From a virus (taxonomy: Duplodnaviria; Heunggongvirae; Uroviricota; Caudoviricetes), in the IMG/VR virus record IMGVR_UViG_2558860288_000010: a stretch of 52,982 bases of DNA; one strand, written 5' to 3'. Under the pieces are notes generated by a model. That model had not been told where the DNA came from. It was given only the letters and a program-made list of their open reading frames with translations, and did not search any database. The translations under genes were made by a program, and so were the position numbers. How positions within the stretch are numbered: the first letter of the stretch is position 1; every line of letters begins with the position of its first letter. This document shows, one piece after another, positions 1-51,614 of this stretch.

Positions 1-996
1 TTAAGCAGGGCTATTTTCAGCATTAGCTCTAACCACAGCTACCTCAACTGTGTCTTTCGCTATACTGTTGTAATAACTTTCTGTAAGCTCAGAAATAAGG
101 AAGTCATCCATCAATAATTTTATAAATAAATCCTTTGACACTTTCGTATCAAGAAGAATTTGAGTCCCATCTTCGGTAAATCTTATTTTACCTTTAAGCA
201 TAGGGTAGTTCTTACAGAAAATTATAATTTTGGCCGTTTCGATACCCCGCTGAATTACTGGAGAGGCTCTTGCAACTTTTGTTAATTTTCTTGCATATCT
301 TACATCTTGGATAAGCTCCGCTAATGCTTCAATATTTGAAACTATATTACGAGCCTCTATTGCAGCCATCCCAGACGTGGCCTCGCGAATAATCACTTCA
401 TGAAAACCAAATGATTTTTCTATAGTATCCAAATCAAATACAAATAACCCATCAGAGAATCTTAGCAATTGAAAGTTATCACTAATCCTAAAAAAATCAT
501 CATCAATCTTCTCGAATCTGGTTCTTGATTTTTTTAGAAAGAAATTTCTTCTTGAGAAAATATTAACGGGGGCCATGGTTTTATATAAAACCATTTGCTC
601 TCTCGCATCACCAATCTCAATAAGTAAGACCTTAATATTATTCACACCCTCTGTGGCAATATTATATAACTCATGATCATCAGTCTGTCTTACCTCATCG
701 AGAACTCTCAACTCCTCAGGTATTTCAAGATCATATTGATAGATGACCTTCACTCTCTCGTCTGATGCCGAAAGTTGTAATATTGACAATTCTTCATTTG
801 ATACAACATTGTCTCGGATATTGTCCATAAAAAGACTAATGAGCCCGCGTTGAGCATCTGGATCAATATCCATTTTTTTGGGGGTATTTGAATTTCTCGT
901 GAGTGCGTAGACAACTATTCCTAGCTGTGCTTGATTATCGATAAAATATTGAAACTTACGATCCAATGTTTCTTTATCATATATAATATCTGGCAT
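1..996 (-). CDS. Hypothetical 331-aa soluble protein, downstream partner of a membrane protein; candidate KwaB-like defense component
   Basis: Complete ORF with ATG start and AAGGG RBS 7 nt upstream. AT-rich. Sits 10 nt after the membrane-protein gene on the same strand; size and pairing fit the Kiwa architecture. No sequence-level confirmation possible here. Confidence 0.4.
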   Translation of the reverse strand: MPDIIYDKETLDRKFQYFIDNQAQLGIVVYALTRNSNTPKKMDIDPDAQRGLISLFMDNIRDNVVSNEELSILQLSASDERVKVIYQYDLEIPEELRVLDEVRQTDDHELYNIATEGVNNIKVLLIEIGDAREQMVLYKTMAPVNIFSRRNFFLKKSRTRFEKIDDDFFRISDNFQLLRFSDGLFVFDLDTIEKSFGFHEVIIREATSGMAAIEARNIVSNIEALAELIQDVRYARKLTKVARASPVIQRGIETAKIIIFCKNYPMLKGKIRFTEDGTQILLDTKVSKDLFIKLLMDDFLISELTESYYNSIAKDTVEVAVVRANAENSPA

Positions 997-1005
997 AGAA
1001 AACCC

Positions 1006-1650
1006 TTAATATCCTGAGTAGTAAACTCTATCATCAAGTTTTATATATTTTACTGAGTCGCCCATTTTAATTTTCTTCCTTGTTATAACTATAATCCCAT
1101 CTCTTTTTTCCCCTCCTTTGAAAACACCATCAAGTTTATAGATATGAAACCCCATCAACGCTAATGAAGGATTAGCATAAAAAAGATCTGTTTTAATATA
1201 AATAATCCCCATAACAACCAGCAACATAGCTAGAACAATTATGTATTTTGTTTTTTCGAAATCAAATGTTATTAATGGAATTACATAGGTTGCAAGAAAC
1301 GTTAAATGTTCATAATTTATACCTTCAACCTTCACAACTTCAAAAGGAATCTCGGTTGATTGTTTGATATCATATTTAAACTTAAAATACGCAACAATAC
1401 TATATAAAAAGAGGAGTGCACAAATAATAGCCACGACATTATTAGATATTAACTTTTCAAAACCTATAAACTTACATTTATCACCAAAACAGATTGGAAT
1501 ATCTATGGTGATAACTATAAAAAAGAAAAAAAGGAGTGATAATGAAAGAATATATAAATTAATCTTTCTGAAAATCATGCCTCCGCCACTATTCCTCATA
1601 TTGATTACTCCCATCATGAAACTATTACGATCATAACTGATATACTTCAT
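1006..1650 (-). CDS. Multi-pass membrane protein (214 aa), candidate KwaA-like
   Basis: ATG start. Translation has several long hydrophobic stretches (LYILSLSLLFFFFIVITI, VVAIICALLFLYSIVAYF, IIVLAMLLVVMGIIYI). AT-rich. Operon partner of 1..996. Confidence 0.4.
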   Translation of the reverse strand: MKYISYDRNSFMMGVINMRNSGGGMIFRKINLYILSLSLLFFFFIVITIDIPICFGDKCKFIGFEKLISNNVVAIICALLFLYSIVAYFKFKYDIKQSTEIPFEVVKVEGINYEHLTFLATYVIPLITFDFEKTKYIIVLAMLLVVMGIIYIKTDLFYANPSLALMGFHIYKLDGVFKGGEKRDGIIVITRKKIKMGDSVKYIKLDDRVYYSGY

Positions 1651-2174
1651 GTTTTAAATGCCACAAAGTAACACTATCCTACTCATAAAAATGCCATACC
1701 CAACAGATTTTATAGTAATTATACAATATTTAATAAGTTTTACTAAGCTACTGTTTTTATCTAAAAGATATCTCCTCTCAACTCCTAATGATAGACATAA
1801 AATATTCTCTCTATGACAGAAACAGCACTACACCGCACCCGCCTGCGGTTTTCATATCACTGAAGTTTTTCAGTTGGGATTTTTTACAAACGATACTTCC
1901 AGCCCGCGCCAGTGCTGGGGATGTACTGCGAGACAGGAACTGAAAAGAATGAAAGGAAATTCAGTTTTTTTCAGTTTTGCTATCCACCGATTCTGTTGCC
2001 AGAATACGCAACTCTTTGATGTTAAATGGATAATTAATTTTAGGTGTGATTTTTTATGAAGGATTGTGAAACAATAAAAACATAACACATTGAAATATAA
2101 TTATTTTATCTCTGTAGAAACTGAAATCCTATGACCAGACTCCGGGAACGGATCAACCATCCCCGGCGCACACT

Positions 2175-2447
2175 CTACCCGTTCTTTTGCGCAGCCAGCA
2201 GCAATTCTAAAGCCTTTTCCCGCCCCTCTGGTGGAATTGCATCAATCAGCTCTTTAACCCTTCCCTGCCCGTTCAGCGCGCTTGGGCTGACCGAATGGGA
2301 GAAAGCAACATTCATCACAAACGAGTGACCACACTCCACGTTAGAGCAATAGCAGTACACATCGTACAGCTGAGGGTGTTTTCTGTTTGTTTTACCGATC
2401 CGCGCGACTGCCTTACATGTTGGGCAGTACATTTTCATCATCTTCAT
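2175..2447 (-). CDS. Ogr/Delta-family zinc-finger late-gene activator (about 90 aa)
   Basis: Translation MKMMKMYCPTCKAVARIGKTNRK...YCYCSNVECGHSF has the C-x2-C...C-x4-C spacing of Ogr/Delta proteins. Start refined to the ATG at 2447 with an AAGGA RBS; the track ORF begins further upstream. Confidence 0.7.
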   Translation of the reverse strand: MKMMKMYCPTCKAVARIGKTNRKHPQLYDVYCYCSNVECGHSFVMNVAFSHSVSPSALNGQGRVKELIDAIPPEGREKALELLLAAQKNG

Positions 2448-2509
2448 CGTTTTATCCTTTTGCCCGCCAGAAAAAGGGATTCTGGTTCCCTGCCTCTTGT
2501 TCTGAACGT

Positions 2510-2697
2510 GTAACACTGGTAACACGCGTAACATCGTTGATTTAAATGAATTTAATCCGTTACCAGTTAACTAAATTAAGAGGTAACGCGTGGTAACACA
2601 CCGTTTTTTGTTACCACTGTTACCAGTACATATTTTTGACTGGTAACAGTGAAGAACCGCATCAGTAGCGGGTGTTACCTCTGTTACCAGTGTTACC
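2510..2697. repeat. Array of about 12 GGTAAC(A)/(T)GTTACC repeats in both orientations; candidate replication cis site (ori/crr-like)
   Basis: Counted directly: copies at 2510, 2518, 2528, 2559, 2582, 2592, 2610, 2619, 2642, 2674, 2683 and 2692, in the non-coding gap between the primase stop and the ogr stop. Confidence 0.6.
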
Positions 2698-2723
2698 TCA
2701 TAAAAATAAGACTCGCGCGATAA

Positions 2724-5411
2724 TTACTCGGGATCGGCGCTTCCCAGTACCTGCGTATTGAACTGATACACTCGCTTAACCCCTATTTCTGGCAGGCGTA
2801 TGCTGTTTTGTGTCCGCCCGTCCTCACCGGCTTTCAGCCAGCCCGCATCCACACACAACCTGGCCACCTTACGTGAATCAAATCCTTTACAGATTTCCTT
2901 CCAGCCGGACGGCAGCACATAAAACGTCACCACCGGTTCTGTGGTGTTGTCGCCTTTGTCCACCTTCCTGAACCCCATCATTGAAAGCGGCCGGTTTCTG
3001 TCATCGTACCAGTCTGCAAAACGGCTGAACTGGTTTCGCGTCATGAAGTCGCGTACCTGTTCAAGCGCGGTTTTGTCTTCCTGATTGGCCGCATGACCAC
3101 GATCGGCCATCCACGACGCCAGGCAGCATTCAGCCGCCCGGAATGCCTCACCTTCCGGCCAGCCGGTGATCCCGGCCTGAGTGGCCAGCTCCCCGGCCAT
3201 CGCCACCAGAGCAAAACGGGTAACCACACGGCCAACCTGATTCCCGGCATTTTCTGGTGTCAGTCTGCGGGTATATTCTTTCAGCAGGGTTTTCGCCTGG
3301 CGGGTCAGCTCAGGCAGATCCCCGGTCAGACAGTACAGCCAGTCGCGGAAAGGCGTGCCGTGATAATGCACCACCGACTGTTCCAGATGTTCTGCCAGGG
3401 TCTTCCCGCCACTGAAGCCGTGCAGCTCCTCAAACACTCCATATTTACCGGAATCGCTGGGGATCTGGATCATCCTGACCTCCACCCCGGCATAGGTTCG
3501 TTCACCGGCGTTGGCCGCATGTTCCACCAGTGACAGCTCTCCGGTGGACAGAAACAGCAGATTCCAGCGGTTGGTTTCTCTCACAGAACCATCCGTTCTG
3601 GCTCTGGCTTTCCCCTGCCCGTTCGCCAGCATATAGGCAATGTTTCCCGCCTCCCTTCCGTCAACCTCCCGGATCTCATCGAGCATCAGGGTCGCATCAT
3701 TGCGACGGCTCGCCGTTCCTTCCAGCGCATTGCCGGTAGCCCGCCACGTGTGCCAGAAGTCCGTACCACCGCAGACCGATGCGGCCACTTTCATGGTCGT
3801 GGTTTTACCGTCCGTCGATTCCCCTTTCAGGTGATAGCCGCCGCCACTCACGCCAACCAGCGTCAGCAGCGGTGCAGCAAAGGCCAGACTCACCGCAAAC
3901 GCCAGGCGGGCATTGCTGACACAATAACGCCCGATATTTTCCCGCCACTCGTCAGAAGTACCGCTGACGCGAAAATCCCGCCCCTGTACACTCGACGTCT
4001 GCAAAATAACCGACTGGGCTTCACGGCCAATCACTTCGTCCTGCAGGACATACACGCCGCCATGCCAGCCGGTTTTATTCACACAAGTGACTTTTCTGTC
4101 TGGTTTACACAGGGACAGGTATTCCATCAGGAAAGCTCTGGCCATCCCGTTGATGTTGATATAAGAAAGACCATTAACCAGTAACACGCGGCGCAGCTCT
4201 TCCCCGCTGCCGCCCAGCATTTCCATCGGCATAGCCCACTTGCGGCTGTTACCGTTTGTGTCCTCCCACTCCAGCAGACGCCCATAATTACTGCCGTCTG
4301 CATCACAGGTGATCGCAGTCACCCGCAGCGGACTGCAAATCTTGATATTGCGGATTTCCGTATCGCCATCAGACTTGTTAACCAGTTTGTCATACCACAG
4401 GTATTCCTTGGTCAGCCTGAATCCCTGCGGCAGCCGGGTCTGCCCTTTACCGTGTAGCGTCATTTCCTCGCGGAAGGCTTCACGCGCCCGATCTTTACCC
4501 ACCTCCTGCCGGTAATCATCCCAGTCCGCCTTATGGCGTACCGGGGGAAGTGTCACCCAGCCATCCACCGCTTTAGCGGCTTTCTCAGCCTGAATACGTC
4601 CGGTATTTTCCTTCCCGTCAGCCAGATCATTATCTCCGGCCAGAATGATCCGGGTCTCCGGCCAGCGCTTTCGTACTTGCTCCGTCACTTTCAGCAAATT
4701 GGTGGCCGCAACAGCCGCCACGATCCACCCTTCAGCCAGAAGGCTGACGGTCAGCGCCGTGGCATAGCCCTCCGTGATGATCACCTGTTCAGGTGTTTCA
4801 GCGGGTATATCGTTAAGGGCAATGAATGCGCCGGACAGCTGGCTGCCGGGTAGCAGGCTTTTATCACCGTCAGGGTTGATAAGCTGGCCACCGGTAATAG
4901 TCCCGGCAATATCCGTCAGTGGTAGCAGCAGCGAACCGGCAGAAAATGTCATCCCGGCCAGATTCAGAGATTGCGCCAGCAGGGGGAGTGAATACCCGTG
5001 TAAGCCCTTATTTGTCAGATAGATCGGCTCACCGTTCCGGCACTGCTGTCTGAGTCGGGTATACCGCTGCGCGCCCGTTTCTTTTCCTGCCGCCTTTTTC
5101 CTGGCGGGCAAAGCGGGTTTCTCCAGCATTTCAGGTAATGCAAGCACCTCAGATACCACATCTGCGGCTTCCTTTACCTTTCTCCCGGTCACCAGACGAA
5201 CCAGATCCAGACCATCACCATGACCGCACTGATTACAAAACCAGGTACCCCGTCCCTCTTTATCGTCGAGACGAAAGCGATCTTTGCCGCCACAGGCCGG
5301 GCAGGCTCCATGACGCCCCGCTGGCGGCACTTTGATACCTAAAGCAGACAGAATATGTGGCCAGTGCCCGACAGCAGCACCTGAAACCGCAGACACAGGT
5401 TGATTCCTCAC
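2724..5411 (-). CDS. P4 alpha-like bifunctional primase/helicase (895 aa)
   Basis: N-terminal zinc-binding motif CPACGG...FCNQCGHGDGLDLV, a central TOPRIM-like region and a C-terminal NTPase region. GTG start overlapping the stop of the upstream gene. Confidence 0.8.
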   Translation of the reverse strand: MRNQPVSAVSGAAVGHWPHILSALGIKVPPAGRHGACPACGGKDRFRLDDKEGRGTWFCNQCGHGDGLDLVRLVTGRKVKEAADVVSEVLALPEMLEKPALPARKKAAGKETGAQRYTRLRQQCRNGEPIYLTNKGLHGYSLPLLAQSLNLAGMTFSAGSLLLPLTDIAGTITGGQLINPDGDKSLLPGSQLSGAFIALNDIPAETPEQVIITEGYATALTVSLLAEGWIVAAVAATNLLKVTEQVRKRWPETRIILAGDNDLADGKENTGRIQAEKAAKAVDGWVTLPPVRHKADWDDYRQEVGKDRAREAFREEMTLHGKGQTRLPQGFRLTKEYLWYDKLVNKSDGDTEIRNIKICSPLRVTAITCDADGSNYGRLLEWEDTNGNSRKWAMPMEMLGGSGEELRRVLLVNGLSYININGMARAFLMEYLSLCKPDRKVTCVNKTGWHGGVYVLQDEVIGREAQSVILQTSSVQGRDFRVSGTSDEWRENIGRYCVSNARLAFAVSLAFAAPLLTLVGVSGGGYHLKGESTDGKTTTMKVAASVCGGTDFWHTWRATGNALEGTASRRNDATLMLDEIREVDGREAGNIAYMLANGQGKARARTDGSVRETNRWNLLFLSTGELSLVEHAANAGERTYAGVEVRMIQIPSDSGKYGVFEELHGFSGGKTLAEHLEQSVVHYHGTPFRDWLYCLTGDLPELTRQAKTLLKEYTRRLTPENAGNQVGRVVTRFALVAMAGELATQAGITGWPEGEAFRAAECCLASWMADRGHAANQEDKTALEQVRDFMTRNQFSRFADWYDDRNRPLSMMGFRKVDKGDNTTEPVVTFYVLPSGWKEICKGFDSRKVARLCVDAGWLKAGEDGRTQNSIRLPEIGVKRVYQFNTQVLGSADPE

Positions 5412-5818
5412 AGCAGTCCCCCCTGGTCTTCCGGTTTCACAAACTCAAAATCTTCAGGGAGATCTCCATCAGGGGCACCAAAAATAATATCCCGGTAAAT
5501 CTCCCGCATCTCTGTGACACCAAAAACTGACAGGTGAATATTTTCTGACATGAAGCCAGGTTTAAGCATTTTTTCCAGTTGTTCCCCGGCCAGCATGCAA
5601 CCAACTTCGGCACCAAATTCAGTCACCCACGGCATTTCAATATGATAAATAATATTGCTCACGACTTTTTCGTGGGTGAGTTCTATTCGTTCGCCATCTT
5701 CAATATAAACCGGTTCATTATGAACACGCTCCATTAAGGAAATGAATGCATCAGCAATGTAGTACCGTAAGACTGCTGTTCGTAAAGCATGCGCCTTTAA
5801 ATTTTGATTATTATTCAT
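5408..5818 (-). CDS. Hypothetical protein (about 136 aa), translationally coupled to the primase
   Basis: Track ORF 5408..5878 begins at TTG. An internal ATG at 5818 (MNNNQNLKAH...) is preceded by an AGGGAGAG RBS. Stop overlaps the primase start. Confidence 0.45.
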   Translation of the reverse strand: MNNNQNLKAHALRTAVLRYYIADAFISLMERVHNEPVYIEDGERIELTHEKVVSNIIYHIEMPWVTEFGAEVGCMLAGEQLEKMLKPGFMSENIHLSVFGVTEMREIYRDIIFGAPDGDLPEDFEFVKPEDQGGLL

Positions 5819-6047
5819 CGCGCATCTCTCCCTTAATTGTGCTGGTTTCCTTAACAACGCCATCCAGTTGTTCGGCAATACAGGCCACTAAAGCCGCAGC
5901 GCCTTCCGCTGAAACAGTTCTCGCTCCATTCACTGTGGGAACGGACAGGACCTCTGCAAGAAACTCACTGGCCAGTGCCGCCCGTAACAGACGACTCTCA
6001 CCCAGTTCGCTCAATATGCAGCCTTGCTTAAAATTCATGGATTTCAT
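5811..6047 (-). CDS. Hypothetical small protein (78 aa)
   Basis: ATG start with a strong GGGAGGTG RBS. Overlaps the neighbouring genes by a few nt at both ends. Confidence 0.45.
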   Translation of the reverse strand: MKSMNFKQGCILSELGESRLLRAALASEFLAEVLSVPTVNGARTVSAEGAAALVACIAEQLDGVVKETSTIKGEMRDE

Positions 6048-6247
6048 GCAATCACCTCCCCGGCACTTTTCACAGGGATACGGGCAGCAAAGCTCAGGAT
6101 AAATTCAGTGGCAAGTTTAAGGCGTGCAGCATGCTCGCAGTCTGCGATTACACGCACAGGACGTGGACGGGCATCACGGTCTGTACGGCGAACAGCCAGA
6201 AAGACAAAGGTAAATTCAGGGTGAGATAAAGCAGGGACTGTAGCCAT
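6044..6247 (-). CDS. Hypothetical small protein (67 aa) downstream of the structured RNA region
   Basis: ATG at 6245..6247; translation MATVPALSHPEFTFVFLAVRRTDRD.... It is the 3' part of the 196-aa track ORF 6044..6634, whose 5' part has no protein-like composition. Confidence 0.3.
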   Translation of the reverse strand: MATVPALSHPEFTFVFLAVRRTDRDARPRPVRVIADCEHAARLKLATEFILSFAARIPVKSAGEVIA

Positions 6248-6249
6248 AA

Positions 6250-6560
6250 TGGCAACCTCCGTTAGATAGCGGGTAACGCTACCACCGGAGTTCCTACGCT
6301 CATGGGTGGTAGCCCAGACGGGGGTAGGAATACCGGCTCTAACGGATACCGGCCAGCCCGAAAGCTGCCCCGCCTGGACTACCATAATTCTGATGATGTG
6401 GCGTAAAAAATAAAAACATGCAGTCAGCCACCACACCATAAATTTTAGGTGAGTCAAAGCTACGACACAAAAAAACACGCCTGGCGCGTGTTGTGTCGCC
6501 GTTAGATTACACGGGTTCCTACGCCCGGCTGCCGATTTTGCGGCAACCTTTAAACTATAT
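6250..6560 (-). ncRNA. Candidate C4/CI-type antisense RNA locus (satellite copy)
   Basis: Non-coding gap upstream of the small-gene/primase operon. Two hairpin-containing segments each carry ttcctacgc (6291..6299, 6517..6525), with a partly complementary gtaggaa segment between them (6324..6330), plus an 18-nt block tgccgattttgcggcaac (6530..6547) identical to 38449..38466. Strand inferred from the flanking genes. Confidence 0.35.
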
Positions 6561-6721
6561 CCCGCGCATTCCTGGTGAGGCAAGAAATTTATAACCGAAA
6601 ACTGAACATTGCCTGGATTAATTAACGCTGGCATGCTTAAGCCTCTGCTTAAAAATAGTTCTTCATTTTTCCTGATGCTGTAAACGAGACCCGCCTCTGA
6701 GCGGGTCTTTCTGTCGCGAAG

Positions 6722-7726
6722 TCAATCAGCAAACGTCAGGGCGCTCTCATCAACAGCCGCGTACAGTTCAGGTTCACCGAGTGCATAGCCTTCATTGCGC
6801 AGGTAGGAATGTACGTATTCACTGTTTTCATCATCAAACTCAGCACGAAACCACCGTGTTATCGCCTGAGTGTAAATATGCAGATTATCCAGCGTCGTTA
6901 CTGCCAGACGCTTACCCGGCATAAACGGGGGAATAAACGCAAAGCGGCCAGCAACAGAACTTGTAGCCATCTGTGCAGCATTCACATCAGCCGGGCGGTC
7001 TGCGGCATTAAATAACTTCAGGCGTTGATGTGCTGCCAGCTCTGCCCCAACCAGTACAACCAGACGAGGATCTTCACGAAACTGCTCAGCAATAAGCTCA
7101 GTAATCAGATGGTTGGCCAGAGCATCTATATTTTTCCAGGTGCCAGTCTCTCCCAGCATGACTGGCTCAGAGATGATTTGCTTTCCGTTCCCGTAGGCTT
7201 TCGCCAGTGCATGCCAGCCAATATTGACATCCTCGCCTTTTTTATTAATTTCCGGGTTTGTAGTATTTGCAATCGACACACCATTGAAACCGACCCGCAG
7301 CATGTCAAGCGCATATGCCTGGGCAAAAAAGCCCTCAACCGTTTTCTCAAACTCATCCGGCACGCCGGTATGGTAAATATGAGACATATCGGAATAGCTG
7401 ATCCGGGCGCAGGTATCCGTCTCGGTCAGAAAGAACTCCGTACCATTGATTGCCATTTTTTTGTGGAAACGGCCACCATCCACACGTCCGGTATGCAGTT
7501 CACTGGCACCAATATTGACGGCATTACCTGACACGGCGTTAACATCACGTAGGGTGATATTTTTAATAAGCCACCCGGATTCCAGAATTGAGGTACGCAG
7601 TATATTTTCAGTGGGTTCGCTTAATGCAAAGCGTCTGTTTGATTCTTCCTGATAGTTAGTGCCAGTGACGAATTTATTATGATAACGACGTGCTGCGTCC
7701 GGCCTTTCAGTTTTGAAGGCATACAT
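6722..7726 (-). CDS. P2 GpN-like major capsid protein homolog (334 aa)
   Basis: ATG with AAAGGTGA RBS. Motifs GFNGV, GW, EDPRLVVLVG and LDNLHIY match what I recall of P2-family capsid proteins. Needs an HMM or BLAST check. Confidence 0.45.
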   Translation of the reverse strand: MYAFKTERPDAARRYHNKFVTGTNYQEESNRRFALSEPTENILRTSILESGWLIKNITLRDVNAVSGNAVNIGASELHTGRVDGGRFHKKMAINGTEFFLTETDTCARISYSDMSHIYHTGVPDEFEKTVEGFFAQAYALDMLRVGFNGVSIANTTNPEINKKGEDVNIGWHALAKAYGNGKQIISEPVMLGETGTWKNIDALANHLITELIAEQFREDPRLVVLVGAELAAHQRLKLFNAADRPADVNAAQMATSSVAGRFAFIPPFMPGKRLAVTTLDNLHIYTQAITRWFRAEFDDENSEYVHSYLRNEGYALGEPELYAAVDESALTFAD

Positions 7727-7748
7727 AGCTTTTCACCTTTTTAAGTAT

Positions 7749-8621
7749 TTAAGAAAAGATTTTATTTTTGTACTCAGTAACCCGATTGTATTTCATTACA
7801 TGCTCAACATAATCCCGGTCACTTACGACTGAACGTAATACATTATTATCTGCTCGATAGTACTCCCTGTAAGCCATAGCTCTTGCCATTCCACCGTTAT
7901 TTAATACATAACGATCAGTTGGAACGCTACAACGGCTAATAATTTCACTCACAGAATCAGACAAAGATTTGAGTGCATCTGTAATAAATTTAATATCACG
8001 GACAACGTCACCGTCATTAAACACAGAAATAAAATCAGCAGGGATCTGGCCGGATTGAGGAAATATGTTCAGTAAACGCTTCTCAACTCCCTTACCAATG
8101 TAGTTAACTTCATCGGCCAGTACGCCCGGTAAAAGCTTGATTGTGCTCAGTCGGCTATGTTGCTCATTCAGCCGGGAAACGGCCAGATGGTAACACCGTT
8201 CAGCATCCGCTCGTTCAGCATGCCCCGTTTTATTCGTTTTGGCTTCAGCAATGCTACTGACGCCGTTTTTTGAGAATGTGCTTTTCCATGCAACTTCCGC
8301 ATTTGTCACTTCACGCTGCCGAAAAGATAACTCTTCCTCTTCCTGACGACACAACTGGGCATAACGGCTCAGGAGCAGGTTGATCTCATTCGCCACAGCT
8401 TCCGTATCAGGTACTGTTAACCCCGTAAGTGAATACAACTTTTCACCTTTAGCGCGCAGCTTATTCAGTGAATATATTTCAATAATACGCACAATACAGG
8501 CCGTGTCGCTATGAGTCTCTTTAAACGGGCTTACTTTATAGCTTCCTAACACGGAAACATATTCATTCTTAATTGGAAGGGATATGTATTGACTCCCCGC
8601 CGGTTGTAGACGGTAATTCAT
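7749..8621 (-). CDS. Hypothetical 290-aa protein immediately upstream of the capsid-like gene; possible scaffold
   Basis: ATG with GAGGAG RBS. Assignment rests only on gene order (scaffold-then-capsid as in P2 O-N); no sequence similarity recognised. Confidence 0.3.
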   Translation of the reverse strand: MNYRLQPAGSQYISLPIKNEYVSVLGSYKVSPFKETHSDTACIVRIIEIYSLNKLRAKGEKLYSLTGLTVPDTEAVANEINLLLSRYAQLCRQEEEELSFRQREVTNAEVAWKSTFSKNGVSSIAEAKTNKTGHAERADAERCYHLAVSRLNEQHSRLSTIKLLPGVLADEVNYIGKGVEKRLLNIFPQSGQIPADFISVFNDGDVVRDIKFITDALKSLSDSVSEIISRCSVPTDRYVLNNGGMARAMAYREYYRADNNVLRSVVSDRDYVEHVMKYNRVTEYKNKIFS

Positions 8622-8657
8622 ATAAACTCCTCATAAATGCCACTAATACTAATGTTT

Positions 8658-8858
8658 TTACTCTGAAGAATGACTATCACGCCAAGCATAGTAGTCACCG
8701 GCACGCCATCGAGACATACGACCTAATTTGATTGGTTTAGGAAAACGACCTAGAGAAATCAGTTTATAAATCCATTTATCAGTAAACAGACAATCAGATG
8801 TAATGAATTTCATATCAATGAGCGAGTCAGCAGAAGGACGATTATCAGTAAACCCCAT
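8658..8858 (-). CDS. alpA: AlpA-family transcriptional regulator / excisionase-like protein (66 aa)
   Basis: Translation ...KWIYKLISLGRFPKPIKLGRMSRWRAGDYYAW matches the AlpA signature (GRFPKP.KLG). ATG at 8858 with GAGAGGAA RBS; the track ORF begins at TTG. Confidence 0.75.
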   Translation of the reverse strand: MGFTDNRPSADSLIDMKFITSDCLFTDKWIYKLISLGRFPKPIKLGRMSRWRAGDYYAWRDSHSSE

Positions 8859-8965
8859 AATGAGTTCCTCTCTATGTATCAATCTATATCAACGAAGAGG
8901 ATTAAAACATCGTTCAAAAATATAAAAAAGGCGAGTAAGCAAAAAATACTTACCCACCAATAATG

Positions 8966-9763
8966 TTAATTATTTGTAAAAATTGGTTTTTTGAAAATAC
9001 TAGCAATCATTTTGCAGATTACTTCGAATGATAAGGGCGGTTCTTTCTTATCAGGCCAAAATTCGGCTGCTCGGGAAAAAACAAGCTTTGTTAGCGCTGT
9101 AGCATTGTCTTTTTTGACATTAGAGTTTTCTTTGTAAAGATAAATGGCCACACTCAAAACTTGATTTCGCTTTATTGCATGTCGCTCTTGTTGTGCAATT
9201 GATAGCGACTTATATACCTCCGAAGAAGAAACATCATTATTAATAATATTATACAGTTTTCGAACATCATCGCTTTCTATATAGCCATCATGCTCAAAAA
9301 AAAGCCCATCAGAATTTTTCCAGTCTATCTGAAAGAACTTTATCTCTTCTGAAAACACTTCCCCTGCTGGAACAAGAAGAGATGGGTATACTGGGAATTG
9401 CCCACTAAAATAAATAAAATCCTTCTGGATTCCTGGTGGGTATTTAAAATAACCTTTTATACGTAAAATAACTAAATTCTTGTCATTTTTTATCTCATGT
9501 ATTTTTATGAGACTATATTGACTAATATAACTATACCCCTCGTCATCCTTATCCAATGAATCAAGATGATTAATAAATTCATTTATACATCTAACTCGAT
9601 GCTTTGAGAAATTACCCTCCCTGCCAACAGATGCAGAGAATGAAAGTTCATTCTCTCCTGCCAGATAAAAAACATCCGCCTCTTCGCAATTTAGCATCTT
9701 AGCAACTTCTGCTACTTGATAATGCGTGCGAAATAGTTTCAAAGGAATGGTTTTATTAGCCAT
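8966..9763 (-). CDS. Hypothetical AT-rich 265-aa protein, translationally coupled to the integrase
   Basis: ATG at 9761..9763 overlaps the integrase stop by 8 nt. Markedly AT-rich compared with the integrase and primase. No recognisable motif. Confidence 0.5.
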   Translation of the reverse strand: MANKTIPLKLFRTHYQVAEVAKMLNCEEADVFYLAGENELSFSASVGREGNFSKHRVRCINEFINHLDSLDKDDEGYSYISQYSLIKIHEIKNDKNLVILRIKGYFKYPPGIQKDFIYFSGQFPVYPSLLVPAGEVFSEEIKFFQIDWKNSDGLFFEHDGYIESDDVRKLYNIINNDVSSSEVYKSLSIAQQERHAIKRNQVLSVAIYLYKENSNVKKDNATALTKLVFSRAAEFWPDKKEPPLSFEVICKMIASIFKKPIFTNN

Positions 9764-10943
9764 TACGATTCATTCCCTCAATAAAATCAGCATACCATTG
9801 CATCATTTCTCTGCGTCCTTCCAGATATTGAGCATGGTTATAAATTCCGCGAATAGAATTTTTATCTAAATGAGCAAGCTGGGTTTCAATCCATGCACTG
9901 TTAAATCCTTTCTCATGCAGAATTGTACTCATCGTATGCCTGAAACCATGCCCCGTAACACGCCCTGCATATCCAATACGTTTAAACACCTGATTAATGC
10001 TTGCTTCACTCATAAATTTGCTAGGATCGTTGCGTCCAGGGAACATCAGCGGGTAGTTCCCAGTTAGTTCTTTCAAACATTTGAGATGGGATAATGCTTG
10101 TTTTGGCAACGGGACAATATGGCTCCTACGCATTTTCATACGTTCTTTTGGGATCTCCCACACCGCATTATCAAAATCCACCTCACGCCACTCACCTGCT
10201 CTTAGTTCTCCTGTTCTTAGACCCGTCAGGATAAGTAAATGTGCCCCCAGCAATACAATTGGGCTTCCTGAATAAGCGTTAAGGGCAGTAAAGAACTCCG
10301 GCAGCTCGTTGGCTTTGAGGAATGGATAGTGGACTGCTTCATGTCCTTGCATCGCACTGGCAAGATCCGGTGCAGGATTGTAGATTGCTCTACCCGTTAC
10401 GATGGCATAGCGGAAAACTTCACCGCATCGCTGACGGACTTTCTTCGCTTTCTCCATAGCACCTCGTGCTTCTATCAACCTCAGTACTTCAAGTAGTTCA
10501 AGGGGCTGAATATCGGCTATAGGTCTGTGTCCAATATGCGGGAAAATGTCTTTCTCAAACGCCTCAATTATGTCTGAAGCATAGCCCTCAGACCATTTGG
10601 GAGATTTCATTTTGTGCCACTCTAACGCCACTTCTCTAAATGGGTTAAGTGTCTCGATCGCTGCGTTTAAAGCATGCTTCTTTGCTTTTTTCACTTCGCC
10701 AGGATCTTCACCAGCGACGAGTAGTTTCTTTGCGTCTTCGCGTTTTTGTCTGGCATCGGCGAGGGTGACTGTTGGATAGACACCAAAGGACAAGCGCTTC
10801 TCTTTACCAGCAAAACGGTACTTCATACGCCAGTAACGCGAGCCATTAGGTTCAACCTGAAGGTACAGGCCACCTCCATCAGATAGCTTATAGCTCTTCT
10901 CTTTTCCTTTAGCGGCTTCAACCTTGCGGGCATTCAGCATCAT
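9756..10943 (-). CDS. int: P4-type tyrosine integrase
   Basis: N-terminal arm-binding-like region (KSYKLSDGGGLYLQVEPNGSRYWRMKYRF) and C-terminal catalytic region with HGFRHT and a Tyr near the C-terminus. Likely ATG-ATG start at 10943; the track start at 11012 is TTG. Sits 165 bp from the tRNA-derived repeat. Confidence 0.85.
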   Translation of the reverse strand: MMLNARKVEAAKGKEKSYKLSDGGGLYLQVEPNGSRYWRMKYRFAGKEKRLSFGVYPTVTLADARQKREDAKKLLVAGEDPGEVKKAKKHALNAAIETLNPFREVALEWHKMKSPKWSEGYASDIIEAFEKDIFPHIGHRPIADIQPLELLEVLRLIEARGAMEKAKKVRQRCGEVFRYAIVTGRAIYNPAPDLASAMQGHEAVHYPFLKANELPEFFTALNAYSGSPIVLLGAHLLILTGLRTGELRAGEWREVDFDNAVWEIPKERMKMRRSHIVPLPKQALSHLKCLKELTGNYPLMFPGRNDPSKFMSEASINQVFKRIGYAGRVTGHGFRHTMSTILHEKGFNSAWIETQLAHLDKNSIRGIYNHAQYLEGRREMMQWYADFIEGMNRNG

Positions 10944-11107
10944 TGGGGGCACATTTCCTAGACCGAACAGAACATGCCCCCGATTGTGCCCCCAATTGTA
11001 TGTTGATTTCAAGAGATAGGGGTTGACGTCAAATGACGAAGAATCGCGTAATAACTATGTTTTTAAAGGGTTTTGTTGATTTGAGATGACTTGGAAATAC
11101 TAAGGGA

Positions 11108-11153
11108 TGGTGCCGATAATAGGAGTCGAACCTACGACCTTCGCATTACGAAT
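11108..11153. repeat. 46-bp exact duplicate of the tRNA-Thr 3' end (att site between the two elements)
   Basis: tggtgccgataataggagtcgaacctacgaccttcgcattacgaat is identical to 51539..51584. Confidence 0.85.
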
Positions 11154-11594
11154 CTGTAGCACCAATCATAACTATCTGTTTTAGCAAGCATTAACCGCAT
11201 TCACTAAGCTATAGTTGATGGCACAAACAGAAAGTTGATGCATGATGTTGTCATGTGTATGTCACAAATACGGCACAACGATCTTCAAACATGTAGCCAC
11301 ACATCCACAGAAGAGCGCAAAGCCTTGCAATCCAGTACAAAGCTTTGTGTGTCTCATTTTTGTCTCACCTTTTATTACGCAAAAAAAGATAAGCCTGAAA
11401 CCAAACGGCGCCATAGGCATGTTAACGGGAGAATTACCTACCAGGAACTTACAAACCGTTTAAATGATGTGGAAGTATTAACATGTAAAATCGGTAACGG
11501 CTGGAAATCATTCAATACTCGCACTATCAAAAGTTCACCAGCCAGCCGCAGCACGTTCTTGCATACGACGTGGCTGCGGCATATCACAAAACGA

Positions 11595-40973: not shown

Positions 40974-41671
40974 ACACTTGCTCCTTTCAGCCCAAACTTA
41001 GCTTTGATTTCTGCGATCTTCGCCAGAGCCTGTGCACGATTTAGAGGTCTACCGCCCATAACAGGAAGTTGTTTTACTGGTTCAGGTATCGTCTCACCAC
41101 GGTTAATTCGCGCTGTCATACAGGTCAGTTCATCGGCAGCCTTGCGCCGTAATTCCGCGTCAGTCAGCGCATTGGCTCGCATGTTCTGGTACAGGTTGGT
41201 AACCAGCCAGTAGTGCGCGTTTGATTTCCACGGATAAGACTCTGCATCCGGATACAGCCCGCGCTTCCGGCAATACTCGTAAACCATATCAACCAGCTCG
41301 CTGGCGTTTGGCAGCCCGGCGGTAACGGATGCTTCTTCCCGGCACCAGGCGACAAACTGCCCGGGTGATGGCAGGAATGGTCGATTCTGCCGACGGGCTA
41401 CGCGCATTCCTGCGTTAACCTGTTCCATTGTGGTGATCCCGTTTTCCCGGAAAGCCAGAACCCACTGGCGGCGGATTTCGTTCAGTTCATTCTGGTCACG
41501 GTTAGCCAGGCTCGCCGGGAAAGTTGCCAGTAACTGGCTGAACACACCGTTGATGATCTGCGCTACCTGCTGTACCTGCGGCTTTTCGTCGTACTGTTCC
41601 GGCATGTTGTTGGCGATCCGACGCATCTGCTCACGGTCAAAGTTAACCATCTGTGCGGCGATGTTTTTCAT
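40970..41671 (-). CDS. P: Replication protein P (helicase loader)
   Basis: 233 aa, MKNIAAQMVNFDREQMRRIANNMPEQYDEKPQVQQVAQ... is near-identical to lambda P as recalled. Confidence 0.9.
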   Translation of the reverse strand: MKNIAAQMVNFDREQMRRIANNMPEQYDEKPQVQQVAQIINGVFSQLLATFPASLANRDQNELNEIRRQWVLAFRENGITTMEQVNAGMRVARRQNRPFLPSPGQFVAWCREEASVTAGLPNASELVDMVYEYCRKRGLYPDAESYPWKSNAHYWLVTNLYQNMRANALTDAELRRKAADELTCMTARINRGETIPEPVKQLPVMGGRPLNRAQALAKIAEIKAKFGLKGASV

Positions 41672-42597
41672 AAATCCACCCCGTAAATCCAGTCAGTGTT
41701 TGTCAGGTCGAGTTTTGGTTTGCTGGCTATCATGCCTGCCTGTTGCTTGTTACGGTTGATTTCGAGCTGGGTCCACTTGTCGCGGAGTTTGGCCGGACTC
41801 AGCACGTTACCGGACCAGAAGTTGTCCTGGCATGCCCAGCGGAACAGTACACACATGTCGCGGTGGTTACGTCCGTCACGTTCACGCATCAGGCGGATAT
41901 CGTTAGCCCACCCTGCAAAATTCGGTTTTCTGGCTGATGGCGCGATGGTCTTCACCATGTCAAACATCCACTCTGCGGCGGTCAGGTCTTCTGCTGTCCC
42001 CCACTTGCTGCCGCTCTGAATTGCAGCATCCGGTTTCACCACAGGAAGATCGTTTTCTGGTTGGTCAGAGGATTCGCCAGAATTCTCGGACGAAAAAGGT
42101 TTTATATTGTCTTTTGTTAGTTTGTCTTTTGTGTTTACCTGATTCGGGTAAACGCCTTTACCTGATTTGGGTAAACTTTTTTTACCTGATTCAGGTAAAT
42201 TTACCTCTTTCAGGTAAACTTTATTTTTCTTACCTGATTCGGGTAATGTTGACCATTCACTGACCACATTATTAATGCCGGTATTCCGCCCGCTCTGAAT
42301 AAAAATCCCACGCTTTACCAGAACACTTTTTGCAGCAGAACACTTGTGCGGCAATATCCCGGTTAACTCGGAAAGTTGCTCGTTGCTCACCCAATCCAGT
42401 TTTTTATTAAAGCCATATGTTTTGCGCATGACAGCCAGGAAGACCAGAAGCTGGTGCTGTGTTAATCCGGCCAGCATTACAGCTTCCAGCAACTCATTTG
42501 CAATGCGCGTATAACCATCATCGAGATCTGCCACGCGCGGCTCCTTTTGTGCCACATCCGGCACTGGAAAATTGAATATCTCAGCAGTGTTTGCCAT
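41668..42597 (-). CDS. O: Replication initiator, O-like, with ori iterons inside the coding sequence
   Basis: N-terminus ...RVADLDDGYTRIANELLEA...LLVFLAVMRKTYGFNKK resembles lambda O. Probable ATG at 42597; the track ORF extends to 42687. Confidence 0.7.
   Translation of the reverse strand: MANTAEIFNFPVPDVAQKEPRVADLDDGYTRIANELLEAVMLAGLTQHQLLVFLAVMRKTYGFNKKLDWVSNEQLSELTGILPHKCSAAKSVLVKRGIFIQSGRNTGINNVVSEWSTLPESGKKNKVYLKEVNLPESGKKSLPKSGKGVYPNQVNTKDKLTKDNIKPFSSENSGESSDQPENDLPVVKPDAAIQSGSKWGTAEDLTAAEWMFDMVKTIAPSARKPNFAGWANDIRLMRERDGRNHRDMCVLFRWACQDNFWSGNVLSPAKLRDKWTQLEINRNKQQAGMIASKPKLDLTNTDWIYGVDL
42135..42247. repeat. Origin iterons: five copies of about 19 bp TTACCTGATTCGGGTAAAC
   Basis: Counted directly at 42135, 42158, 42181, 42201 and 42229; each unit is itself an inverted repeat (TTACC...GGTAA). 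An AT-rich tract lies at 42100..42134. Confidence 0.7.
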
Positions 42598-42683
42598 AAT
42601 TCCTCCCGCAATGAGTGCGTTACGATTTGCACCTGAAAGTCGGCTCTGTTCCCGCAGACCGGCTTTCGCCATTTTTGAACCTG

Positions 42684-43229
42684 TCATATTGCCCCCAGCA
42701 TGGCGGTGACCATCGCCATCAATGGACCAGCCAGATCCGGGTCCACTCGAAACATCGACACAATGCCTTCACTCATCTCCTTCAGTTTCTGGTGGCGTGG
42801 TGCGTTGAGAATGACCGCCTGCTTTGCCTCACAGAGTTCCTTTTCCATTTCAGCCAGCCGAGCCATGAAGCTATCCTGCTCAACCAGGTGGCCGCGATAT
42901 TCCAGCGGTAGTACCGCCAGAATTGCCGGGGTCAGTTCACGCACGTTATTTCGGTATTTTTCAGAATCGAATTTGTTATCGAGGAAGCGGAACAGCTTCT
43001 GGCGTGCACGGCTGACATCATCAGGGAAATCGATAGTGCCGCCGCCCTGCTCCCGATACTCATTCACAATGAGTGTGGCAACGACATCCTGATTATCTTC
43101 AGCCGACCAGGCGCGGACGGCATCACGGATTTTTTCGTGGCCTGGCACCTGTTTTGTTTGAGAACGATTTATCACCGCAGTCGGGCTAAATCCGCTAGTC
43201 TGTTGGTATGTAAGTGGTTGCATAGTCAT
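42684..43229 (-). CDS. CII-like / YdaT-like early regulatory protein (putative)
   Basis: 181-aa ORF in the cII position between cro and O; ATG start. Confidence 0.35.
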   Translation of the reverse strand: MTMQPLTYQQTSGFSPTAVINRSQTKQVPGHEKIRDAVRAWSAEDNQDVVATLIVNEYREQGGGTIDFPDDVSRARQKLFRFLDNKFDSEKYRNNVRELTPAILAVLPLEYRGHLVEQDSFMARLAEMEKELCEAKQAVILNAPRHQKLKEMSEGIVSMFRVDPDLAGPLMAMVTAMLGAI

Positions 43230-50071: not shown

Positions 50072-50487
50072 GGCCTGCCAGCTTCTCAAGATATCCAGAC
50101 CTACAGCAATCATGTCAATCCAATAAATGGAGACTCCAAGTGGAAGAAGAAATCTTCACTCGTGAAGAGGCTGCGTCGTATCTGAAGGTAGACAAAGGCA
50201 CTATCACGCAGTGGATACGAAGTGGACGACTTCAAGCCGCAAAGATAAATCCAGATAAACCTAAAAGCCCATATCGCATTTGCAAATCAGACTGCATTGC
50301 GGCGCTTAAGTCTGTGAGACACAATAGCGCGGTGAATGCGGTTGATGTGCAGGAGGTTAAAGCATGTCAATCAAACTGCGCGGTGGCACATGGCACTGCG
50401 ATTTCGTCGCGCCAGATGGATCAAGAGTTAGACGCTCTCTTGAAACATCGGACAAGAGGCAAGCGCAAGAACTTCACGATCGTCTGA
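50068..50487 (+). CDS. xis: Excisionase-like HTH protein (putative Xis)
   Basis: Central segment REEAASYLKVDKGTITQWIRSGRLQAAKI is a typical excisionase-type HTH. Start uncertain (ATG 50068 or GTG 50140); the 3' end overlaps int by 124 nt. Confidence 0.45.
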   Translation: MRPASFSRYPDLQQSCQSNKWRLQVEEEIFTREEAASYLKVDKGTITQWIRSGRLQAAKINPDKPKSPYRICKSDCIAALKSVRHNSAVNAVDVQEVKACQSNCAVAHGTAISSRQMDQELDALLKHRTRGKRKNFTIV

Positions 50488-51524
50488 AAGCAGAAGCGTG
50501 GAGAGTAAAAAATCTCGGTGAATCACCGAAAAAGCTATTCAAGGAAGCCTGCATACGGTGGCTGCGAGAGAAAGCGGATAAGAAGTCCATTGATGATGAC
50601 AAGAGCATTATATCGTTCTGGATGTTGCACTTCAGAGAAACCATTCTCTCTGACATAACAACAGAAAAAATAATGGAGGCGGTAGACGGGATGGAAAACC
50701 GCCGCCATCGCCTGAACTGGGAGATGAGCCGGGATAGGTGTTTGCGGCTTGGCAAGCCAGTGCCGGAGTATAAACCAAAGCTGGCAAGCAAAGGAACGAA
50801 GACGCGGCATCTGGCAATACTTCGCGCTATTCTCAATATGGCTGTTGAATGGGGATGGCTTGACAGGGCGCCCAAAATATCAACACCACGCGTTAAGAAT
50901 GGACGAATCAGATGGCTTACAGAGGAGGAATCGAAGCGCCTGTTTGCAGAAATTGCTCCTCATTTCTTCCCTGTGGTCATGTTTGCAATCACGACAGGCC
51001 TTCGTCGTTCCAACGTTACAGACCTTGAGTGGTCACAGGTCGATCTGGATAAGAAAATGGCATGGATGCACCCTGATGAAACAAAAGCTGGCAATGCGAT
51101 CGGAGTTCCTCTTAACGAAACCGCATGCCAGATATTAAGAAAACAGCAGGGGCTCCATAAGAGATGGGTATTTGTCCACACCAAACCTGCCTACCGAAGC
51201 GACGGAACAAAAACAGCAGCGGTAAGGAAGATGAGAACCGACAGCAACAAGGCATGGAAGGGAGCGTTAAAGCGGGCAGGCATTAGCAACTTCCGCTTCC
51301 ATGACCTGAGGCATACCTGGGCAAGCTGGCTGGTTCAGTCCGGTGTCTCTCTTCTTGCACTTAAAGAGATGGGAGGATGGGAAACTCTCGAAATGGTTCA
51401 AAGATACGCCCACCTTTCAGCTGGGCATCTCACCGAGCACGCGAGCAAAATCGATGCGATTATAAGTCGCAATGGCACAAATACGGCACAAGAGGAGAAC
51501 GTAGTTTACTTAAATGCGAGGTAA
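50364..51524 (+). CDS. int: Tyrosine integrase (lambda-type)
   Basis: ATG with AGGAGG RBS; catalytic HDLRHTWAS and Tyr in VQRYAHL; ends 15 bp from the tRNA 3' end. Confidence 0.85.
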   Translation: MSIKLRGGTWHCDFVAPDGSRVRRSLETSDKRQAQELHDRLKAEAWRVKNLGESPKKLFKEACIRWLREKADKKSIDDDKSIISFWMLHFRETILSDITTEKIMEAVDGMENRRHRLNWEMSRDRCLRLGKPVPEYKPKLASKGTKTRHLAILRAILNMAVEWGWLDRAPKISTPRVKNGRIRWLTEEESKRLFAEIAPHFFPVVMFAITTGLRRSNVTDLEWSQVDLDKKMAWMHPDETKAGNAIGVPLNETACQILRKQQGLHKRWVFVHTKPAYRSDGTKTAAVRKMRTDSNKAWKGALKRAGISNFRFHDLRHTWASWLVQSGVSLLALKEMGGWETLEMVQRYAHLSAGHLTEHASKIDAIISRNGTNTAQEENVVYLNAR

Positions 51525-51538
51525 CTTATTGATTTAGA

Positions 51539-51614
51539 TGGTGCCGATAATAGGAGTCGAACCTACGACCTTCGCATTACGAATGCGCTGCTCTACCAAC
51601 TGAGCTATATCGGC
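51539..51614 (-). tRNA. thrW: tRNA-Thr (thrW-type), integration target
   Basis: Reverse complement reads GCCGATATAGCTCAGTTGGTAGAGCAGCGCATTCGTAATGCGAAGGTCGTAGGTTCGACTCCTATTATCGGCACCA (76 nt); its 3' 46 nt are duplicated at 11108..11153. Confidence 0.9.

Follow-up and report, generated by a model that had tools for sequence, protein, structure and literature searches.

A candidate iteron origin of the SaPI/PICI type after the primase-helicase gene of a P4-like satellite

Phage P4 requires two separated regions, ori and crr, in cis, and its alpha protein carries an SF3 helicase together with its own origin-binding domain. In the GenBank record of P4, crr (4291-4590) is annotated directly 3' of the alpha gene (4636-6969) and ori upstream of sid; both regions are built from a type-1 repeat, TGTTCACC / GGTGAACA, and the six GGTGAACA repeats of ori are laid out in the orientations >>> < >>. 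The SaPI elements use Rep proteins that are self-loading helicases, whose C-terminal winged helix binds short iterons, and SaPI origins place 6-12 iterons directly 3' of rep, in opposed sets that flank an AT-rich centre (PMC9371898). In PICIs of Escherichia coli the origin is organised in this way too, and one of them, EcCICFT073, has yielded a pri-rep-ori fragment that replicates autonomously (PMC6092414).

Here we describe an array of twelve short repeats in an ~11-kb P4-like integrative satellite, which is best explained as an iteron origin of the SaPI/PICI type. Putting together sequence comparison, structural models and analogy with described systems, we consider it highly probable that the array is the replication origin of the element and that it is recognised by the C-terminus of the primase. 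The kind of origin is already known, from SaPI/PICI and from P4; what is new is the array in the family of DUF927-type P4-like satellites, on whose origin we found no paper in the literature searched.

An array of twelve iterons in a P4-like satellite

The window, i.e. the whole stretch of DNA that we analysed, is 52,982 nucleotides long, and its positions 1 to ~11,100 are a small integrative element. We class this element as a P4-like satellite because it combines a C4/CI-RNA region, an Icd/Ash-like gene and ogr/delta; all of its genes lie on the minus strand (Table 1). The rest of the window is a separate ~40-kb lambdoid prophage that ends beside tRNA-Thr (51539-51614).

Table 1. Features of the satellite and of its repeat array, in window coordinates
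Feature	Position	Strand	Basis or detail
KwaB	1-996	-	Pfam KwaB; RefSeq annotation
KwaA	1006-1650	-	RefSeq annotation of identical element
Ogr/Delta-like zinc-finger gene, 3' of array	2175-2447	-	Pfam Ogr_Delta 7e-14; RefSeq annotation in L001
Conserved TTCTGGCGGGC block, between array and ogr start	2462-2472	-	
Terminator-like hairpin, between array and ogr start	2475-2491	-	
Iteron triple S1-S3, ogr-proximal	2509-2533	+	Direct repeats, 9-bp spacing: tGTAACA 2509-2515, GGTAACA 2518-2524, cGTAACA 2527-2533
Main AT-rich stretch, candidate unwinding region	2534-2581		GC 23-33%; composition profile
Conserved TTGATTTA(A/T)A block adjoining S1-S3	in 2534-2581		Alignment consensus 'T.TAAAtCAA'
Single inverted iteron S4, inside main AT-rich stretch	2558-2564		GTTACC
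Iteron pair S5-S6	2582-2598	+	GGTAACg 2582-2588, GGTAACA 2592-2598
Dyad centre (~2603), T6 tract	2599-2608		
Iteron pair S7-S8	2609-2624	-	TGTTACC at 2609-2615, 2618-2624
Second AT-rich spacer	2625-2641		
Single iteron S9	2642-2648	+	GGTAACA
Iteron triple S10-S12, primase-proximal	2673-2697	-	9-bp spacing; TGTTACC at 2673, 2682, 2691
Primase-helicase, 895 aa	2724-5411	-	Pfam; PHROG DNA primase
Domains of primase-helicase	residues 32-68 (Zn-ribbon), 210-307 (Toprim), 331-614 (DUF927 helicase)		Pfam
C-terminal winged-helix domain, residues 781-895	2727-3071	-	Putative iteron-binding domain
Small ORF	5408-5878	-	
Ash/Icd-like ORF	6044-6634	-	Overlaps Rfam C4 antisense RNA, isrK, c4-a1b1
P2-family major capsid gene	6722-7726	-	Pfam Phage_cap_P2 1e-66; PHROG major head protein
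Two ORFs without functional assignment	7749-8621 (290 aa), 8966-9763	-	
Tyrosine integrase	9756-11012	-	

Between the stop codon of the primase (2724) and the start of ogr (2447) lies a non-coding gap of 276 bp (2448-2723), and 189 bp of it are taken up by the array, whose first iteron stands 27 bp past the stop codon. The original prediction had reported about a dozen GGTAAC/GTTACC "heptamers" at 2510-2697, in both orientations and often as closely spaced pairs, in a 190-bp gap just 3' of the primase gene. Its account of place and orientation was right, and the length that it gave is that of the array, not of the gap; the string that it quoted is a hexamer, with 10 exact copies within 2518-2697, and two one-mismatch variants (tGTAACA and cGTAACA) complete the set. 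Allowing at most one mismatch from GGTAACA, 2509-2697 holds exactly 12 sites, six per strand, and their alignment gives the consensus (T)GGTAACA(C/G) and a conserved unit of 7-9 bp. The close spacing is likewise real, with the difference that the sites form triples as well as pairs, spaced by 9 bp inside the triples and by 9-10 bp inside the pairs, and that the whole is strictly dyad-symmetric. On the plus strand the orientations read >>> < >> / << > <<<, i.e. two mirror halves of 3-1-2 / 2-1-3, and all six mirror pairs of sites are centred on 2603-2603.5. In 2530-2580 and 2610-2650, GC drops to 23-33%. Two features of the layout weigh against its being an origin. One is the 9-bp spacing in the triples, which does not match the helical repeat; the other is that the two long spacers are unequal, the ogr-proximal one being AT-rich and the primase-proximal one GC-rich, so that the array is not a simple symmetric origin.

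The clustering of the motif is far beyond what the window would yield by chance. For example, outside the array the window (52.8 kb) has 34 copies of GGTAAC, sites in the array are ~20 times as dense as the background, and at the background rate a stretch of 188 bp would have 10 or more copies with a Poisson probability of 1.7e-16. Among all 200-bp windows of the 53 kb, the array has the highest count of any single 6-mer, and over the whole window GGTAAC occurs 44 times, vs a mean of 18 +/- 4 and a maximum of 28 in shuffled sequences. The check that the original prediction had proposed, enrichment relative to the rest of the window, thus came out in its favour, and the motif is not equally frequent elsewhere. 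In the element itself (1-11.1 kb) there is no second cluster of the motif, even allowing one mismatch.

An Rfam scan of 1-11,500 at E<=1 returned no known RNA family in the gap (2448-2723), its only matches being C4, isrK and c4-a1b1 at 6302-6560. Two ORFs overlap the array, one at 2387-2545 on the plus strand and the other an upstream extension of ogr to 2534; neither is supported as coding, and indels of all lengths occur in the region among relatives.

Linkage of the array to the primase gene

Scanning with the primase protein, with one genome per species, gave 58 loci, and viral contigs gave 64 further loci (L numbers below refer to individual loci). At almost all of the 37 genome loci that were tabulated, the array starts 21-45 bp past the primase stop, and the layout common to them is '>9>9> 31 < 24 >9> 17 <10< 24 > 31 <9<9<'. 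Altogether, ~76 distinct homologous arrays occupy this same place after the primase gene, and the positions of S1-S3 are kept in them. The genera that bear such arrays are Citrobacter, Enterobacter, Franconibacter, Kosakonia, Pectobacterium, Brenneria, Xenorhabdus, Yersinia, Rahnella, Proteus, Morganella, Rouxiella, Serratia and Pantoea; arrays are also found in Accumulibacter and Paraburkholderia, where the primase proteins are only 33-35% identical. Within E. coli, the array region is present in 449 of 5,426 complete genomes (~8%), always on the chromosome, with the element lying, for example, at tRNA-Thr in NCTC9100 and at tRNA-Arg in an ST131 strain. The ST131 array has 11 sites with at most one mismatch, and its twelfth (S3, TGTAACG) retains the GTAAC core. 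A megablast search of phage records gave no match to 2100-5900. Across 10 representative loci, pairwise identity is 90.5% in iteron columns vs 43.3% in spacer columns, a pattern that points to selection on the repeat sites, with the iterons conserved while the spacers drift.

What lies downstream of the array is far less constant. Some arrays are followed by unrelated genes (L032, L033, L042, L045), others by a sid-like gene and then a distant delta-like gene (L022, L023, L025, L026), and in other relatives ogr comes directly after the array. Because the downstream genes vary between elements, the array is tied to the primase gene and not to ogr; the ogr/delta-like gene is a neighbour that lies outside the origin. 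These observations weigh against a reading in which the repeats are operators, bound by Ogr/Delta, AlpA or a helper-phage protein, that serve ogr or the late promoter and have no role in replication. Such a reading draws on the position of the array, 60-250 bp upstream of the ogr start, and on a TGT-N12-ACA element (2498-2515) that overlaps the last iteron and that we take to be a site of the P2/P4 late-promoter activator type. We nevertheless consider it very improbable, since the array accompanies the primase gene even at loci where ogr is not directly next, its motif covaries with the primase C-terminus (see below), a promoter scan of 2100-3000 returned no sigma-70-like promoter, and a terminator-like hairpin stands between array and ogr. 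The TGT-N12-ACA element is itself present in only 17 of the 76 distinct arrays, essentially one clade, and it therefore fails to explain why the array is conserved. In that clade there may be a secondary regulatory effect on ogr, and the array, being upstream of ogr, may additionally act in transcription.

Short repeats in both orientations are also possible for packaging sites (cos or pac), centromere-like partition sites and clusters of integrase arm sites, and a reading of the array along any of these lines would have to contend with several features of the element. Neither terminase nor par genes are among its genes; no copy of the P2/P4 cos 19-mer occurs in the window, even allowing 3 mismatches; the integrase and the element ends are at least 7 kb off, and the distance between array and integrase varies between elements. 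The link to the primase C-terminus would, moreover, be left unexplained, and we find this reading barely credible. The linkage and conservation of the array instead agree with that part of the original prediction which had made it a replication cis element bound by the primase.

Two further words recur near primase genes. CAAGG lies ~62-68 bp past the stop codon, in the first long spacer, in 33 of the 76 distinct arrays (e.g. L045 at ~6204, L042 at ~5725 and L010 at ~6729); the Paraburkholderia array is among those that carry it at this near-fixed offset, in Accumulibacter it lies ~44 bp past the stop and is mirrored in the opposite spacer, and the array of the window itself does not have it. 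At L043-L059, which have only the N-terminal primase domain in common (~50% identity), the word is a different one, AAGTGG, with 4-6 copies per 200 bp; these clusters (at ~6000-6280 in each) lie ~2 kb past the match to the primase domain, by our estimate near the 3' end of the primase gene. The AAGTGG clusters suggest that iterons after the primase gene are general for these satellites.

Most P4-like relatives, those with ogr next as well as those with a sid-like gene next, also have a conserved block, CTT.TTTCTGGCGGGC, ~35-65 bp past the last iteron triple; in the window it is the TTCTGGCGGGC block of 2462-2472, and P4 (L060, 9448-9470) has a similar TTTTCCTGGCTTGCCGG ~45 bp past its last ori iteron. 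The block may be part of a late promoter or a leader.

A mosaic candidate initiator and its covariation with the iterons

The protein encoded beside the array is a fusion of a P4-alpha-type primase domain with a SaPI-Rep/Cch-type helicase. Its N-terminal primase domain (residues 6-317) is 41% identical to residues 5-311 of P4 alpha (E 3e-54); beyond residue ~317, no sequence similarity to P4 alpha was detected, and hhalign gave the two C-termini a probability of 0.07%. The helicase domain instead finds sequence matches in SCCmec Cch (5DGK, E 1.4e-12) and staphylococcal pathogenicity-island Rep (8TCH, E 1.3e-11). AlphaFold models of the C-terminus are confident (pLDDT 87.6 for the last 210 residues, 88.8 for the last 115), and SaPIbov1 Rep and Cch are the only PDB entries that they match significantly in Foldseek. 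Among structural matches to the C-terminus Cch ranks third, and below it come many winged helices of the MarR type and the WH domain of MCM8; the origin-binding domain of P4 is absent among these matches. By sequence and by predicted fold, then, the helicase and DNA-binding parts belong to the SaPI Rep / SCCmec Cch family.

The iteron sequence differs between lineages. At most loci the motif is TGGTAACA, with GGGTAACA at L018, L025 and L026, GGTGTAACA at L013, L019, L022, L023, L032, L088, L092, L102 and L118, and GGTGGAACA at L033 and L093-L115. Rarer variants are GGTGGTACA (L119), GGATACA (L008), GGGGATACA (L042), GGTTACA (L007, where it is mixed with others), GGGGTTACA (L124) and GGTGACA (L045). 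Near-identical primases with unlike motifs (L010/L013, L018/L019 and L020/L007/L008) allow protein and DNA to be compared side by side: these proteins are 95-100% identical over most of their length, and their differences are almost confined to the last ~50 residues.

The substitutions lie within the segment G-[RK]-x-Q-x3-R-x-P-E-x3-K-[RW]-V-Y, where residues R866/T867 and K879/R880 of the wing covary with the iteron sequence. An arginine at 866 pairs with TGGTAACA, and a lysine there pairs with GGTGTAACA, GGGTAACA and GGTGGAACA, i.e. motifs of the GGTG-, GGGG- and GGTGG-types; residue 867 (P, M or T) separates GGGTAACA from GGTGTAACA; and a change of K-R to K-W at 879-880 (R880W) pairs with GGATACA and GGTTACA. 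In the 115-residue model, the covarying residues are predicted to lie just before and within a two-stranded wing, whose strands (89-93 and 97-104) correspond to protein residues 869-873 and 877-884. Such covariation would be expected if the 5' half of the iteron, which varies, were read by this segment, and the tracking of motif switches by wing residues in several near-identical protein pairs may reflect a cognate pairing of specificities.

One array does not settle on a single motif. That of L007 (Pectobacterium polonicum, 6686-6900) mixes GGATACA, GGTTACA and GGTGACA, with the same variant at most mirror positions, and the differences between the L007 primase and that of L020, whose iterons are GGTAACA throughout, are nearly all in the last 50 residues. 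The L007 array may be a relaxed-specificity or a recombinant origin.

Described origins, a proposed mechanism and other features of the element

Among the described systems, the likeness is greatest to the SaPI/PICI origins (SaPI1, SaPIbov1, SaPI5 PriRep and EcCICFT073). As in these, the array lies directly 3' of the initiator gene; its 12 sites fall within the range of 6-12 iterons in opposed sets around AT-rich DNA (here 2534-2581 and 2625-2641); and the initiator is, from its sequence and models, a probable Rep-type self-loading hexameric helicase with a C-terminal winged helix. Both the helicase and the C-terminal domain match SaPI Rep, by sequence and by fold, and primase and Rep are fused in SaPI5 PriRep5 as they are here. 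The array thus has all the sequence-level features by which the SaPI/PICI origin type is defined. The differences lie elsewhere: the host element is P4-like (CI/C4 RNA, Icd/Ash, ogr/delta) and not a PICI, the primase domain is of the P4-alpha Zn-ribbon/Toprim type, the iteron is 7-9 bp vs 5-6 bp, and the layout, a fixed 3-1-2 / 2-1-3 palindrome, has two AT-rich tracts in place of a single central one. SCCmec Cch has the DUF927 helicase family and the fold of the C-terminal domain (5DGK) in common with our protein, but Cch has no fused Toprim primase and its element is of a different type.

The comparison with P4 is more mixed. The element is P4-like (C4/isrK RNAs, Ash/Icd-like gene, Ogr/Delta) and has its iteron cluster directly 3' of the primase gene, as crr is; the N-terminal primase domains are homologous (41% identity); the >>> < >> layout of P4 ori is exactly one half of the array, which is not the layout of crr; and each has a similar TTTCCTGGC..CCGG block past its last iteron. 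Against these likenesses stand three differences. The exact type-1 octamer is not present, the motif here (TGTTACC/GGTAACA) being one base shorter; the initiator is not of the alpha type, homology being limited to residues 6-317 and the helicase here being DUF927; and instead of two separated iteron regions there is one 12-site palindromic array in 1-11.1 kb. Because P4 features are lacking on all three counts, i.e. octamer, alpha helicase/origin-binding domain and two cis regions, we assign the array to the SaPI/PICI origin type. The original prediction had noted that the motif differs from the P4 octamer, and so it does, by one base only: P4 GGTGAACA is one base longer than GGTAACA and sits between the variants of our relatives such as GGTGTAACA and GGTGGAACA. 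In modelling its replication element on P4, on the other hand, that prediction chose the less apt parallel; covariation, like linkage, is consistent with the primase-bound element that it proposed, and the closest described origin is SaPI/PICI, not P4 crr, because the helicase and DNA-binding parts are those of the SaPI Rep/Cch family.

Could the array nonetheless be a crr-like auxiliary site, i.e. an enhancer, handcuffing or copy-control site for the same initiator, with initiation at a different site? Its place directly 3' of the primase gene is that of P4 crr, and P4 needs both ori and crr in cis. We judge this improbable, in that the motif forms a single cluster in 1-11.1 kb even at one mismatch, the parts of a complete SaPI/PICI origin, AT-rich tracts and opposed sets of iterons, are all present in the array, and the layout that half of it copies is that of P4 ori and not of crr. 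Besides an origin in the array, the element may have a less obvious second cis element.

Lambda-type origins resemble the array in that their iterons are bound by the element's own initiator, but these iterons are palindromes of ~19 bp within the coding sequence of the initiator, which has no helicase and recruits that of the host. The prophage in the window has a second iteron cluster of its own (42128-42250), ~5 copies of a ~19-bp palindrome, TTTACCTGATTCGGGTAAA, inside a 339-aa ORF (41668-42687, minus strand), which looks like a lambda-type origin in an O-like initiator gene.

For the array of the satellite, we propose that replication would proceed as follows. Derepression of the element would lead to production of the 895-aa primase-helicase, whose C-terminal winged helix would recognise the twelve (T)GGTAACA(C/G) iterons; the array, being made of two mirrored halves of six sites each, would bring two helicase rings together head to head. 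The AT-rich spacers, chiefly 2534-2581, would melt, the DUF927 helicase (Cch/SaPI-Rep type, MCM-like) would load itself, the Zn-ribbon/Toprim domain would lay primers for extension by a host polymerase, and replication would be bidirectional. An origin directly after the initiator gene would keep each specificity variant linked to its own sites.

More speculatively, the 3-1-2 / 2-1-3 palindrome may be a one-site-per-subunit template that places two MCM-like primase-helicase hexamers head to head, and a small "wing code" (R/K at 866, residue 867, R/W at 880) may set specificity, which could be re-programmable by one or two substitutions. As for the P4-ori-like motif and half-layout beside an unrelated helicase, the architecture of the origin may have been kept while the helicase module was swapped, or the winged helices may share an ancestor that is no longer detectable. 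Jointly, the 12-site double-hexamer template, the wing code and the kept architecture (or a winged-helix ancestor in common with P4) make up a proposal that we put forward tentatively, doubting that it holds in full.

The element is a mosaic: its primase domain is of P4 type, its helicase and DNA-binding domain are of SaPI-Rep type, and the repeats of its array have P4-like words and stand where those of a SaPI would. P4-like satellites are on this evidence mosaic in their replication module, in which a P4-type primase domain is combined with a helicase and origin of SaPI-Rep type. The array offers a concrete candidate origin and a cognate initiator domain for a satellite family that extends across the Enterobacterales and, in E. 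coli, occurs in ~8% of complete genomes, ST131 among them. The series of motif variants paired with winged-helix changes of 1-3 residues is a natural system for the evolution of initiator-origin specificity, with possible use for orthogonal replicons, and, for structural study of how a self-loading helicase is loaded as a double hexamer, the symmetric layout of 12 sites provides a compact substrate. The value of the locus lies in this clean 12-site palindrome, natural specificity series and mosaic initiator rather than in any new principle.

Several other features of the element deserve mention. On the minus strand, Rfam matches to C4 antisense RNA (81 bits), isrK (72 bits) and the c4 a1b1 target, at 6302-6389, 6470-6547 and 6508-6560, cluster within the Ash/Icd-like ORF and are a P4-type CI-RNA immunity region. 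The satellite and the lambdoid prophage are arranged in tandem and have separate integrase genes (window 9756-11012 and 50364-51614), and in NCTC9100 the satellite is alone at tRNA-Thr. No sid or psu gene is recognisable in the satellite; its P2-family capsid gene is full-length and preceded by the 290-aa ORF, the pair is kept beside the primase module in many genera, and a capsid protein of its own is unusual in a P4-like satellite. Finally, the element end beside ogr (1-1650) holds the Kiwa defence genes KwaA and KwaB here and sce7725/sce7726-family genes in the ST131 relative, and this end is therefore a hotspot for variable cargo.
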